Below are positions 20,831-63,138 of a stretch of 64,000 nt of DNA, in pieces; the stretch's first letter is position 1, and every line of letters begins with the position of its first letter. Under the pieces are notes generated by a model, which was not told where the DNA came from, did no database searches, and saw nothing but the letters and a program-made list of their open reading frames with translations. Source of the DNA: Eledone cirrhosa (taxonomy: Eukaryota); the NCBI GenBank assembly GCA_964016885.1, contig OZ024753.1, forward strand, positions 12,152,001 through 12,216,000. Reading direction: 5' to 3'. The position numbers and the translations under genes are program-made.

Positions 20831-21222
20831 ATAGTATTTAAAATAAAACATTGCACTCCTATGGTTCATATAAACTTAATTATGTTTATTACTAAGGCTA
20901 AAAGATTTTATTTATATTTTCTATCATACCACATCTCAAACTAAATGTAATTACTGGCACGAAACCCATTACAAATACGAATGCGTACTCAGCCCTGTAA
21001 GTTTCTCTCAATGTTATTACCAACTCCCAAAGACCCATCAAATCCCAAGCCTTATTGGTGCCCAACCGTTCTGGATAACAATTACAATGGAACACAAACT
21101 TCCAAACACGCACACTCACAGATATATATATATAGTAATAATAAGTAATACGTTTTCAAAAGATCCTGTTAAGGGTGACAGAAGCGATTATTTGCTTAAA
21201 CATTAATCTATTCTTATAATAA

Positions 21223-21265
<43 letters not shown>

Positions 21266-21330: not shown

Positions 21331-21397
21331 TATTTTATCTGATGAAAGCGCACCAAGTATGCCTTGGTTGTCCTTGAAATATATATATAATAAAATA
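21331..21397 (+). ncRNA. Type I hammerhead ribozyme
   Basis: TATTTTAT-CTGATGA-[AAGCGCACCAAG tatgc CTTGGTTGTCCTT]-GAAA-TATATATA-TA-ATAAAATA: perfect 8 bp stem I, intact core, palindromic stem III. Confidence 0.8.
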
Positions 21398-29057: not shown

Positions 29058-29391
29058 AAATAGGATTTCGCTTCAAGCATAGCTTTATACAATATGTATA
29101 AATATTTCGTATCTCCAAAGAAATACGGTTTGAGGAAGCCGTAGCTGGGCTAACGCCCTCTGGTGATGTCCAGCAAGGGGGACAACCGTCTATGCATTTC
29201 AGGCTTAACTGGCCTTCGTCAGACGGTCCCTCCCACCGCTTGCGACTGAATATATACTTCTGTCGTCTGTGTAAATAAGGTGATTAATCTCAGTTGCATA
29301 TGAAGCTGCATAAGTTGGCTCAACTTCTAATAAAAAAGAAATAGGATTTCGCTTCAAGCATAGCTTCATACAGTATGTATAAATATTTCGT
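29058..29391 (-). mobile_element. Retrozyme/pLTR-like unit: 281 nt monomer plus 53 nt terminal direct repeat
   Basis: aaataggatttcgcttcaagcatagc...aatatttcgt at 29058 and 29339, with an HHR in between. Confidence 0.65.
29185..29227 (-). ncRNA. Minimal type I hammerhead ribozyme
   Basis: Minus strand: ACCGT-CTGACGA-AGGC cagttaa GCCT-GAAA-TGCA-TA-(G)ACGGT. Stem III is palindromic (ATGCAT); there is one extra G at the base of stem I. Confidence 0.65.
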
Positions 29392-36033: not shown

Positions 36034-36540
36034 TGAATATAGACATAGAATATTCGAAAATATTCTGTATGTTTATAATAAACATTTTGAAGACCTAATC
36101 GCTATAGAATAGAATACGTCACGTATTACAATTAGATTCTCGATAAATTAGAAATTGGAATAAATGCTCTGAAATAGCGATATATATGTGAATATAGACA
36201 TAGAATATTCGAAAATATTCTGTATGTTTATAATAAACATTTTGAAGACCGGCAACCGCTCTTTCAAACCAGTTCCTGTACACAGCTAAGTATTCTATAA
36301 GTCTCTAGCTGTGTCATTCTCGATAAAAGCACTGGATATGTAGTCCTGATGATTTCTAACAAGAATGAAACGCGTAGATTACTTCCCTTGCTTTTATCGA
36401 GAATCTAATTGTAATACGTGACGTATTCTATTCTATAGCGATTAGGTCTTCAAAATGTTTATTATAAACATACAGAATATTTTCGAATATTCTATGTCTA
36501 TATTCACATATATATCGCTATTTCAGAGCATTTATTCCAA
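36034..36540 (+). mobile_element. Fold-back ribozyme-bearing element (pLTR/retrozyme-like)
   Basis: Perfect ~96 bp inverted arms (36155-36250 / 36445-36540). 36034-36147 is an inverted copy of 36393-36506. Central HHR. Confidence 0.75.
36340..36382 (+). ncRNA. Minimal type I hammerhead ribozyme
   Basis: GTAGTC-CTGATGA-tTTCT aaca AGAAt-GAAA-CGCG-TA-GATTAC with a GUA cleavage triplet. Stem I extends past an internal loop by 16 bp (36316-36331 / 36389-36404). Confidence 0.85.
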
Positions 36541-37425
36541 TATATATATATATGTTATATATATATATGGTATATATATATATACAGTATATATATATAT
36601 ATATGTTATATATATATATATATATATATGTTATATATATATATGGTATATATATATATACAGTATATATATATATATATATGTTATATATATATATATA
36701 TATATGTTATATATATATATGTTATATATATATATGGTATATATATATATACAGTATATATATATATATATATGTTATATATATATATATATGTTCTATA
36801 TATATATATGTTATATATACTGTGTATATATATATATATATATGTTATATATATATACTGTGTATATATATATATATATGTTATATATATATATATATGT
36901 TATATATATATATATGTTATATATATATATGTTATATATACTGTATATATATATATATATAACATATATATACTGTATATATATATATATATATAACATA
37001 TATATACTGTATATATATATATATATATAACATATATATATACTGTATATATATATATATATATAACATATATATACTGTGTATATATATATATATATAT
37101 ATAACATATATATACTGTGTATATATATATATATATATAACATATATATACTGTGTATATATATATATATATAACATATATATATATGTAACATTTATAT
37201 ATATATATATATATATATAACATATTTATATATATATATAACATTTATATATATATATATAACATTTATATATATATATATATAACATATTTATATATAT
37301 ATATATATATATAACATATTTATATATATATATATATATATAACATATTTATATATATATATATATAACATATTTATATATATATATATATAACATATTT
37401 ATATATATATATATATATATATAAC

Positions 37426-37959: not shown

Positions 37960-38317
37960 TAACACTGTTTACAATATAAACATTGTAGATCTTGATTGTC
38001 ATTCTAATATTGAAGACGATAAGATCTCTTTAAGAGTGAAAGCAGCGATTCTTTTCTTAAACTTTAATCTGTTATTTTAATAAATATTTTCTCTACGGTT
38101 CTTATATATTTGTTATATATTCATCCTTATCGAGCCCTCTTTCGATTTTAGTCTTCAAATTTATTATTATTATTAATATATATATATATATATTTATTAA
38201 AATAACAGATTAAAAGATTAAAGTTTAAGCAAATAATCGCTGCTTTCACCCTTAACGGGATCTTCTGAAACTCTTATCGAGCCCTCTTTGGATTTTAGTC
38301 TTCAATTTTATTATTAT

Positions 38318-38391
<74 letters not shown>

Positions 38392-38482
38392 CGTCTTCAG
38401 TATTAGAATGGCAATCAAGATCTACAAATGTTTACAATGTAAACATTTGTAGATCTTGATTGTCATTCTAATACTGAAGACG

Positions 38483-38484
<2 letters not shown>
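37960..38484. mobile_element. Cluster of direct and inverted pLTR-like repeats, including near-perfect palindrome 38390-38484
   Basis: 38020-38085 is the inverse of 38190-38265; 38126-38172 is approximately 38273-38318. A further copy lies at 21153-21225. Confidence 0.65.
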
Positions 38485-40825: not shown

Positions 40826-41407
40826 TTCCGGGTTCAATCGGGGGTAACCGCAGTAACTAAGTTACTCAATAGATTGCAGAGTATAAATATTTTAATATAG
40901 AAAAGCTTTTTGGGGTGCTTCCCCTTATTGTGAAGTTTCTCTTAAATTATATTCCAGGTGTCAACAAGCACATTCACACACGCGCCCACTTACACAGACA
41001 AACTTCACAATAAGGGGAAGCACCCCAACACTTGAACCTGTTTCTAGAACCCTTTCTGCCTTTGACACCTTTATTTCAGCCTCAAAGAATTAGCTTCTAA
41101 AGAATTTCCATTGTCTTTAAACCAATGAACCCCACCCATCCATAAGACACCTGTCTTACAGGCAGTGTTAGTCTAAGTGATAAACAAGGATTGGTATTCC
41201 AAATTTGAATTTGTTTACAGTATTCTTTCTGCCTTTGTTAATATTATAGCTTTAAAGTATTAGCTTTTAATGAACTCCCTTTTCTTTAAATGCATCAACC
41301 AATGACCGCCACCCATACCAATACGCACCCTCTCCTACCACCAGAGAGCTTCCTGGTGATTTCTCACGAATGAAACAGTCCTAGTCCTGTAGAAACTCTT
41401 CTATATT

Positions 41408-41596: not shown

Positions 41597-42011
41597 ATAT
41601 TCATTAGTTAAGCAAAACAAAACCACAAATTTCACAAGGAAGACATTATTAAAAGATTGTCAACATATTTTAGTTTGATTAAGGAATGTGGATAATAATA
41701 ATAATAATAATATTAATAATTGTTTCTACTTTAGGCACAAAGCCAGCAATTACCCAGTGTATTACTGGTACTTTATTTTATCGACCCCGTAAGGATGAAA
41801 GGCAAAGTTAACCTCGGCGCGATTTGAAGTCAGACCGTAAAGGGACGTAACTATGCTGGAAAGCTGTCCGTTTACAATTGTTTCGCTACTACATAAAATA
41901 TTTCTGGATCAAATGTCTACATTCCTTACATCAATCTAAAATATGTTGACAATCTTTTAATAATGTCTTCTTTGTGAAATTTGTGGTCTTGTTTTGCTTA
42001 ACTAATGAATA
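41597..42011. repeat. ~95 bp inverted repeat pair enclosing a truncated SINE (41717-41866, minus)
   Basis: 41597-41692 is the inverse of 41916-42011. The minus strand carries GAAA-CAATTG-TA (HHR 3' half) at about 41872-41884. Confidence 0.75.
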
Positions 42012-42029
42012 TATATATATATATATTAG

Positions 42030-42494
42030 GTATAGGATTATCCTAGATGTAGTAATGGTTAATTACTACACTGGATATGGTTGACGTACGGTGAGATGTT
42101 ACTCTACGAGTTATGGAATAATTGTTGAAGAAACTTAGTTCTTGATCCTTCTGTATTCCGGAGTGTGTACAAAGAATGAATAATAACAGACATCATAAAA
42201 AGGTAATTTATTCCGTGTGCTTACAAATGTTTCCACGGTGGTAATACAGCCTAGTTATGCTATGTGCAAATTTACAACTATTTGCAGAACTCAAATATCC
42301 AATGCTGTGACCACTGTATCATCAGAGCAGGATTCTGCTCTGATGATACAGTGGTCACAGCATTGGATATTTGAGTTCTGCAAATAGTTGTAAATTTGCA
42401 CATAGCATAACTAGGCTGTATTACCACCGTGGAAACATTTGTAAGCACACGGAATAAATTACCTTTTTATGATGTCTACCTGTTATTATTCATT

Positions 42495-42498
<4 letters not shown>
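42030..42498. mobile_element. pLTR fold-back with near-perfect ~160 bp arms (42171-42498)
   Basis: Axis at agagcag-gatt-ctgctct (about 42332). The arms are identical except for a small indel. Confidence 0.8.
42336..42447 (+). ncRNA. Hammerhead ribozyme with long loop II insertion (mirror copy on minus, ~42218-42329)
   Basis: TGCT-CTGATGA-TACAGTGGT-[~67 nt]-ACCACCGTG-GAAA-CATTTG-TA-AGCA with a GUA triplet. Confidence 0.65.
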
Positions 42499-42564
<66 letters not shown>

Positions 42565-54959: not shown

Positions 54960-56237
54960 ATTTATTTATTTGTTTTGTAAGGTATTTAATATGAAATCGT
55001 GTGTCGAAACAAATATTGTTATACTTGGGGATGGTCATAGTGTTATGAAGTGAAGGCGTGTGGCTGAGTGGTTAGAGAATTGGATTCGCAATCGTAAGGT
55101 TGTGAGTTCGATTCCTGGACCAGGCGATGCGTTATGTCCTTGAGCAAGACACTTTATTTCACGTTGCTCCTTCTACCTGGAGTTGCGACCGATAGATAGT
55201 ATTAGCAATTGGAAAGACCAACGGAAACATTGTTCCCTCGGTCCGATTTGACGAAAGTCAACCGTTCCTTATAGTGTTATGATATTGCCAGAAATAATAA
55301 CAGAACACACTCATTGTTTGATTTCCTAACTAACTGCATAATAGCCAGTATGGATGTAGTATCTCTGTACCCATCCATTAACAATGATTTTGCTTTGGAA
55401 AAAATGTGGGGAAATAATCAATGAGATCGAAGTAGAGTTCTGCGACGTCGACACAGATGAACTGGGCCTCCTACTTAGACTTACTACTTATGACACCGAA
55501 TACCGAGATAATCATGACCTTTGCTGATTCTGCCGCAGTTGACCTATATGAGGTAGACCCCCCCCCCCAACCACCACCACCACCATAACCACAATTTCTA
55601 AAAGGACTCCCATAGGAAGATGGATTGGATGGACCAAAGCGATACGGACACCCCAAAACAATGATCAGGTGAGATAAATAGGGGCTAGTATTAAAACTAC
55701 TCTAAAGGGCCATATGTTTATATTTAATCAAAAGATCTACACCCAGAATAAGGGAGCAGCAATTGGCGTCAGCATAGCTGGCGATGTTGCCAATCTATTG
55801 GTATGGTGGGTGAGGAGACTCTACCCCTTTAAGAAAACCTACTGTACGAATAAGAAATGTGTTATATGTAGAATGAACCACCAGATAAATTGTAAAACTA
55901 GATATGTAGTCTATAGTATAAGATGTACAGAGGGTACTTGTAGAAACATGACAAAAAGATACAAAGGTGAGACAGCTCGAAGCATAGGAGAAAGAATAGA
56001 GCAACTTCGGGGAGAGATAAAGGGACAAAAAAAGGAGACGGTTCAGTACTATATGAACACGCCAGACAAAAACATAACGGTAATATAGACAACATAGAAA
56101 TGACTCAACTGGTAGGCAAGTCAGAGAAACAACTGAGATAGAACTAAGAAGACCGATGTTGAACAGAAAGACCCAATGGAAAAACAAAAACAATCATACC
56201 CAAACAAACAATACTGACTTAAGGGAAACATAAATAA

Positions 56238-62169: not shown

Positions 62170-63138
62170 ATCCGGGTTATTGGTTGGTTCCACAACCAGA
62201 TGGTTGTTCATACATTGTCAAATTCTTTCGTCGCACATTCTGTGACCTCTTCAGTGACTGGGAATTCATTTCTTTGTTTTGGTGCCTCTCCTTTGTTCTT
62301 TCCTGCGCCATCTTGTTTCTGTGTGTGTGTGTTGTGTGCTCAGTCTGCGCATGCGCCACATCCGGGTGTCTGTGTGTTTATATTCGTTTATTTATTTGTT
62401 TATTTACATGTTACTGGTTGGTTGGTTGTTCTATGTGCGTGTGTGTTTTCAATTTGTCCTTAATTGTAAGTTGAGATGTTCCTGTTCCACTCATGATTTC
62501 TATTTAATTTTGGTTGTAATTCTTTTATGTTTATTGCCTCTATGATTTGCCTAAACATTGCGTCTTTTCTGTGTGTAGATTCTATTTTTTATTTCTATGT
62601 TGTCTAATTTACCCTTATGTTCTATTTTAGCATGTTGGTAGAGTACAGATGATTTTTTACTATCTTGAAGGTCTCGCCAATGTTAATTTATCCGTTCCCA
62701 TATACTACGAGCTGTCTCACCTATGTACACTATATTTTTATCTCTACATTGTCCTTCAGTACATCTTATGCTATATACTACATTTCTAGTTTTACAGTTA
62801 ATATGGGCGCTTAATTTACATATTATACATTTCTTGTCTATACAGGGAGTTCTTTGAAAAGGGTATGTCTTGCTAATAACTGTTTTTATGGAGGTACCTG
62901 GTGTTTCTACTATCTTAATATTGAGTTCATGTTTATTTAGGGCCCTTCTAAATGTGTAAGCTAATTCACCTCTAGGGGTTGTATCGATGAACATTACACT
63001 CTGGTATTTATTGCTATTATACCATGAGTTTATTCTATTAGCCTTATTCCTAGTTCTTTCTATTCTATTCTAAAATGTGCTCCTATACAAGGGGCAGGTC
63101 CCATTTGTGTCATTATTTGCCATTTTTTCTCATTTGGT
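62170..63138 (-). mobile_element. Penelope-like element 3' part (GIY-YIG endonuclease region, 3' UTR, pLTR with HHR-like motif)
   Basis: ORF 62683-62994 reads C.DKKCIIC...CKTRNVVYSIRC...YIGETARSIWERI. The motif GTCA-CTGAAGA-gGTCAC..GCGAC-GAAA-GAATT-TGAC is at 62258-62217. Confidence 0.85.

Follow-up and report, generated by a model that had tools for sequence, protein, structure and literature searches.

A 310-nt hammerhead retrozyme unit inserted head to head in a TA microsatellite, probably by Penelope-like enzymes

Introduction

A hammerhead ribozyme motif lies within a long fold-back in the window analysed here, a stretch of 64,000 nucleotides of Eledone cirrhosa DNA. An earlier note on the sequence had taken the whole structure for a rod-like, viroid-like element of which the paired arms are a part. 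The question that the locus raises is whether the fold-back belongs to the repeat unit or arose when the unit was inserted. Retrozymes are common and are known from many animals, so that the element itself would be an ordinary one.

Results and Discussion

Anatomy of the insertion

Two inverted pairs without a single mismatch were found at the locus: perfect arms at 36154–36250 and 36445–36541 (97 bp, 0 mismatches), as had been claimed, and upstream of them a further inverted copy of the right arm, with 36034–36147 matching 36393–36506 (114 bp, 0 mismatches). The minimum-energy fold also contained the inner hairpin (36280–36288 with 36306–36314) and the 16-bp stem (36316–36331 with 36389–36404) that the earlier note had described, and the fold of 36034–36560 gave z = −24.9 against 100 shuffles. 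The window as a whole is AT-rich, with many TA-type microsatellites and short interspersed repeats. Features of the locus are listed in Table 1.

Table 1 Features of the insertion locus, in window coordinates.
Feature	Position	Strand	Description
Whole insertion	36034–36541		508 bp; island within a compound TA microsatellite; antisense piece and sense copy, head to head
Antisense piece 2 (further inverted copy)	36034–36147	−	114 nt, equal to 36393–36506; stops at the internal AT tract of the unit
Joint with 3-nt microhomology	36145–36147		leaves out 152 nt of the unit, among them the ribozyme (omitted length computed from the 310-nt unit)
Antisense piece 1 (left arm)	36145–36250	−	3' 106 nt of the unit as aligned
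Sense copy	36247–36541	+	carries 295 nt of the 310-nt repeat unit; spans the predicted cleavage site
Head-to-head joint	36247–36250		4-nt microhomology, GACC
Inner hairpin	36280–36314	+	native to the 310-nt unit
16-bp stem with internal loops, extending stem I	36316–36404	+	native to the 310-nt unit
Type I hammerhead motif	36340–36382	+	GUA triplet; predicted cut after 36376
35-nt extension	36507–36541	+	at the right outer end only, not at the left; 26 nt with the AT tract assigned to the element

The insertion has both of its 3' ends on the outside, directed into (TA)n and separated by 35 nt of the unit. The left outer end sits at the internal AT tract of the unit, with a 9/10 match to the (TA)n target. 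In a check for a target-site duplication longer than 4 bp, a 22-nt match between the two flanks proved to be part of the microsatellite and is repeated on either side, and no LTR pair was seen at 36034–36541. This locus carries only one ribozyme, so that no dimer can form in cis and dimer cleavage would need arrays elsewhere. Its two joints, with microhomologies of 3 and 4 nt, support the earlier suggestion of template switching during copying. The terminal 9 nt of antisense piece 1 (36145–36153) are missing from the sense copy, and the left arm was therefore not copied from the present right arm. A derivation of 36148–36154 from the ribozyme loop was considered and abandoned, since these letters belong to the 3' end of the unit itself.

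The 310-nt repeat unit

Public runs were queried with 36125–36444, a stretch that spans both joints, by means of 29 sampled words. Runs X4 and X6 each yielded one 340-nt contig that closes into a 310-nt period, in the order 36247–36444 forward, 36250–36145 in reverse, six letters absent from the window, and back to 36247. Over the 304 letters compared, the unit in X4 and X6 showed 0 differences from the window, in agreement with the recent origin proposed earlier. The sense copy is identical to the closed 310-nt contigs of both runs at 36247–36444, and at 36445–36541 it is identical to the reverse complement of 36154–36250, which the X4 and X6 contigs match as well. A closed 310-nt unit was thus found in two of the four runs examined in detail (X1, X4, X6 and X21), with the proviso that a tandem array and a circle give indistinguishable closed contigs.

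The closed contigs imply that the unit has one arm copy and that the inner hairpin and the 16-bp stem are native to it. Paired arms are therefore not part of the element, a finding that the earlier note itself had named as one that would speak against its view, and the fold-back is likely a product of insertion rather than a part of the repeat unit. We found the unit to be non-coding, with a GC content of 34% and a longest ATG frame of 30 codons on either strand. Folded as a circle, it is branched and has 60% of its bases paired, at −67.8 kcal/mol (z = −4.2, with 0 of 100 shuffles as good), and the hammerhead occurs on the + strand only, so that the description of the element as a rod-like, viroid-like RNA is not supported. 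A transcript of the locus could still fold into the highly paired RNA that had been envisaged, but it would carry one ribozyme and would not be the replicating unit. Rod-like folds around genomic hammerheads should accordingly be viewed with caution, in that they may be by-products of insertion.

A search for further copies of the unit in the window brought up none, apart from a weak match of 28 nt to the decayed hammerhead at 41351. Run X1 contained 560 contigs, with an internal joint of the unit at a depth of 25,015 and five private joints at depths of 6–27; if X1 is genomic DNA, the contrast would put the family at around a thousand copies in order of magnitude, depth being no measure of copy number. 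The joint that closes the unit was listed in X1 at a depth of 17.9 as one joint, together with loose ends in 8 and 4 contigs that are listed without a depth, and tandem arrays may therefore be a minority of copies. A 168-nt contig of X4 represents a second family, with other flanks and a related hammerhead that matches 36330–36372 (5 differences in 43 letters).

The hammerhead motif

The hammerhead with its GUA site and predicted cleavage position, as given in the earlier note, was matched by a descriptor. Stem I comprises 36340–36345 and 36377–36382 (6 bp), the core CUGAUGA begins at 36346, GAAA occupies 36367–36370, and stem III is the palindrome ACGCGU. Stem II consists of a U.U at its base, three standard pairs and a 6-nt loop, with a pair probability of 0.13–0.16. 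Given this U.U base and the mere three standard pairs, the term "well-formed" was an overstatement. Nor does "minimal" apply, the design being that of a canonical metazoan type I hammerhead by the terms set out in the available text of PMC4209133.

The descriptor matched this site and three others in the window, compared with 0 per window in 30 shuffled windows. A search of the 64-kb window with Rfam gave no match at the gathering score; for the motif itself, Hammerhead_HH9 scored 19.2 bits (E 0.066), below the gathering score of 52. Exact-pattern scans for the hammerhead yielded 0 matches in metagenome contigs and 0 in viral contigs. One variant was listed within the hammerhead in X1, 36361 A>G in loop II, at about a quarter of the depth.

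Cleavage as a dimer had been suggested from the ACGCGT stem III. In a model of tandem units limited to secondary structure, a double hammerhead lay 2.8 kcal/mol above the minimum fold, versus 17.1 kcal/mol for two single hammerheads. The modelled fold energies thus support dimer cleavage of tandem units, although not at the present locus in cis. Two axolotl hammerheads described in the available text of PMC7229834 offer parallels: helix II of HHR_Amex2 begins with the same U.U, and HHR_Amex1 has a helix III of a single pair and a palindromic tetraloop, as here; both motifs are poor cutters on their own and improve as dimers.

Other hammerhead-like motifs were noted in the window. Those at 21339 (+), 59670 (−) and 63264 (−) have a palindromic stem III and pass the descriptor, and one at 29222 (−), also with a palindromic stem III, was found by a looser pattern. 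A decayed type I hammerhead at 41343–41401 (+) shows one core change, shares the U.U and UUC/GAA of stem II, has a longer stem III and runs into (TA)n.

Proposed origin of the locus

Our preferred reading, which we hold with reasonable confidence, is that the locus is one insertion of a 310-nt hammerhead unit, a metazoan non-LTR retrozyme, which Penelope-like enzymes are likely to have copied into a TA microsatellite, and that the fold-back is a product of this insertion. The unit, its length, its joints and its ends are observed. Outward-pointing 3' ends, an inverted copy and a TA target match the pattern of Penelope-like elements, and mobilisation of the unit by Penelope-like enzymes is therefore likely. 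No sequence link was found between the 310-nt unit and any autonomous element, or between the unit and the putative Neptune-type remnant described below.

The insertion may have proceeded as follows. Tandem arrays elsewhere would be transcribed, and paired hammerheads would cut the RNA to unit length, after which it may circularise. A Penelope-like endonuclease, probably of Neptune type, would cut (TA)n, and each DNA end would then prime a separate cDNA from an internal site of the RNA, with 35 nt between the two sites. The right cDNA would be copied for 295 nt across the cleavage site, which implies a circular or uncut template. The left cDNA would extend for 114 nt, jump over the ribozyme domain at the 3-nt microhomology and continue for about 100 nt more, and the two cDNA ends would finally join at GACC.

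As far as the available texts of PMC7229834 and bioRxiv 10.64898/2026.07.22.740005 show, arguments about the enzyme that moves retrozymes in animals still rely on co-occurrence and phylogeny. The present family, young and of high copy number, with a Penelope-like tail, an inverted copy and a TA target, could allow the mover enzyme to be tested by counts of copy ends in one genome. It also offers an RNA with which priming could be assayed in vitro.

Penelope-like remnants and the possibility of a pseudo-LTR

A 128-residue fragment encoded at 62686–63069 (−) has 964 relatives at E values up to 0.001. It aligns to the C-terminal part of the three long relatives examined, behind RT motifs and a Cys-rich linker; these proteins have a GIY-YIG-like end. 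With these motifs read by eye, the fragment fits a Neptune-type remnant as defined in the available text of PMC8557442, and an element of this type is a possible source of the copying enzymes. Pfam gave nothing at cut-off for the fragment and no GIY-YIG match, and RVT_1 appeared below cut-off in one of eight relatives. None of 24 candidates was scored in a word-index protein search with the fragment, and PDB sequences gave 0 matches for P0074. Broken 3' Penelope-like remnants with a Cys linker and a GIY-YIG-like end are present at 62200–63138 (−) and 55678–56088 (+), and a hammerhead-like motif lies near 62254, at the former.

The window contains both Penelope-like remnants and several other hammerheads, which would also suit a different reading, namely that an autonomous Penelope-like element left its 5'-truncated end (pseudo-LTR) at the locus and that pseudo-LTRs in tandem, a minority, gave rise to the closed contigs. 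A tail, an inverted copy and a TA target are marks of autonomous elements in the available text of PMC8557442, and the low listed depth of the closing joint in X1 points the same way. We nevertheless regard this reading as unlikely, although it is the most credible of the alternatives. In both X4 and X6 the sole contig that covers the stretch closes on itself, and the X1 loose end at 36247, among the 8 of 30 loose ends listed, represents the 3' end of the unit itself in variant form. The hammerhead is moreover of the canonical kind that PMC7229834, in its available text, assigns to retrozymes, and lacks the long stem II that minimal PLE motifs have.

Other repeats of the window are recorded here for comparison. 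A near-perfect palindrome of 334 bp (96.7%) at 42168–42501 ends in (TA)n and folds back just 5' of a CTGATGA motif; an unrelated family probably produced it by a further head-to-head insertion. A cluster of direct and inverted repeats, nested in one another, at 37966–38483, between TA/CA microsatellites and related to 21154–21249, appears to be an older insertion in the same style. An inverted pair about 95% alike (41597–41692 and 41916–42012) flanks a copy of an interspersed repeat of about 190 bp, of which the window contains a dozen or more copies.

Source of the joints

A second alternative is that a retrozyme was inserted normally and the locus was then rearranged at the DNA level, by a template switch at a replication fork or by break repair in the TA array. 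Microhomologies of 3–4 nt are typical of DNA fold-back repair, and those of the two joints would fit it too; the AT-repeat flanks are unstable, and a near-perfect palindrome also occurs at 42168–42501. Against such a rearrangement, which we consider improbable, stand the 9 nt of the left arm that the right copy lacks, and the position of the outer left end at an AT tract where X1 contigs also stop. Ten contigs of X1 exit the element at this internal tract, at 36180, into TA-rich DNA.

Among the joints listed for X1, five of seven lead from antisense arm to sense core with other breakpoints, at depths of 6–27; each of these five is represented by one contig, with sides of 20–27 letters matched at 88% likeness. 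The two joints of the locus itself were seen in no run, and the depth was 0 at 36125–36135 in all four runs examined. Joint 36250/36251 was not crossed among the 15 of 589 pieces listed, and the right end at 36541 was absent among the 8 of 30 loose ends listed. The best run contained 0.83 of the words, compared with 0.84 expected if all joint-spanning words were missing. This near-equality suggests an arrangement confined to the locus or, with lower probability, an artefact.

An assembly or chimeric-read artefact as the source of the fold-back would account for the joints being found in none of the four runs and for the share of words in the best run, and the site does lie between long low-complexity arrays. 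The symmetry ends after 97 and 114 bp, however, and includes letters that the mirrored copy does not contain, and X1 contigs carry similar joints with other breakpoints. We therefore give an artefact little credence, and the unit is real either way.

Distribution over public runs

Half or more of the 29 words were present in 20 of the 24 listed runs, and these 20 span 16 studies and 17 organism codes; the letter-by-letter check of the unit covered X4 and X6. None is recorded as RNA, a count that says nothing about expression, and run kinds are not on record. In X21, a Hi-C run that shares its study and organism code with X17, a run in which the words are present, 0 reads were found in 1,938 million letters, about 1/100 of the run, a sample in which an absence carries no weight. 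X23 and X24, which carry the organism code of X10, another run with the words, and derive from another sample, contained 0.00 of the words.

An abundant repeat or RNA carried over between samples, diet or related hosts seem far likelier explanations of the spread over 17 organism codes than a mobile RNA, with carry-over the likeliest. It is very improbable that the unit, besides being a genomic retrozyme mobilised by Penelope-like enzymes, travels from one animal host to another as a free circular RNA, a viroid-like agent of animals with a DNA reservoir. If that were true, a host-passing circular RNA would explain the identical closed units under different organism codes as well as the absences from the Hi-C run X21 and from the other sample of X10's code. 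Very improbable, too, is the reading in which the unit is also a free viroid-like circular RNA, replicating or moving between hosts, with the locus as an integrated copy: the breadth of the spread, the single closed, variant-free contig in each of X4 and X6, and the absences from X23, X24 and the sampled part of X21 would suit it, but the hammerhead occupies one strand only, X1 has many diverged copies with genomic flanks (560 contigs), viral and metagenome contigs gave 0 matches, and trace carry-over of a high-copy repeat, diet and related hosts would produce the same picture.

Comparison with known systems

Metazoan non-LTR retrozymes, as described by Cervera and de la Pena (2020) in the available text of PMC7229834, share with the present element a unit of 150–450 bp, a GC content below 50%, the lack of an ORF, one type I hammerhead per unit, a self-paired fold, and a head-to-tail or circular arrangement. 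Four of seven retrozyme features were found (type I hammerhead, unit size with head-to-tail order, non-coding sequence with GC below 50%, and stable fold), and none was contradicted. Those retrozymes occur in tandem, whereas the present locus is head to head with a tail-like end, and its self-cleavage is predicted. The words "inverted" and "tail" have 0 occurrences in the main text of PMC7229834. A survey of titles and the beginnings of abstracts, with most subscription papers beyond reach, revealed no cephalopod retrozyme and no inverted or tailed retrozyme insertion. The 310-nt unit may represent a previously undescribed family within the known retrozyme kind, with the reservation that the supplements of PMC7229834 and of bioRxiv 10.64898/2026.07.22.740005 may list it.

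EN+ Penelope-like elements, those of the Neptune clade in particular, share with the locus, according to the available text of PMC8557442 (Craig et al. 2021), an inverted 5'-truncated copy, a tail of 30–40 bp at one end, microsatellite or AT-rich targets and a hammerhead in the terminal repeat. The combination of inverted copy and tail is present here, at one locus, as a 114-bp terminal inverted repeat and a 35-nt right extension. The unit differs from an autonomous EN+ Penelope-like element in that it has no RT/GIY-YIG ORF and closes on itself at 310 nt. In the in vitro work of Frangieh et al. (2024), as given in the available text of PMC11167929, the tail is the stretch between two internal starts of reverse transcription and uncut RNA is the main template. 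Priming in that system proceeds without target homology, whereas the left end of the present insertion matches (TA)n at 9 of 10 positions.

A link between retrozymes and Penelope-like elements has already been proposed in the available texts of PMC7229834, PMC7761336 and bioRxiv 10.64898/2026.07.22.740005, in the last of which Li, Clavereau and Pollet propose that retrozymes use Penelope-like enzymes. The evidence in the available text of that preprint comprises co-occurrence and terminal-repeat phylogeny, mostly for vertebrates, and differs from the insertion anatomy described here; it uses "tail" 0 times and "inverted" once, in the title of a reference. Insertion-level evidence for the link was not found in the literature surveyed.

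Hammerhead viroids (Avsunviroidae) resemble the unit in size, hammerhead, self-paired fold and possibly a circular form. These viroids carry hammerheads in both polarities and replicate from RNA to RNA with no DNA stage. The present unit, in contrast, has its ribozyme on one strand, exists as integrated DNA, both at this locus and with varied flanks in X1, and belongs to an animal host, and the rod that invited the comparison with viroids is local to the insertion.
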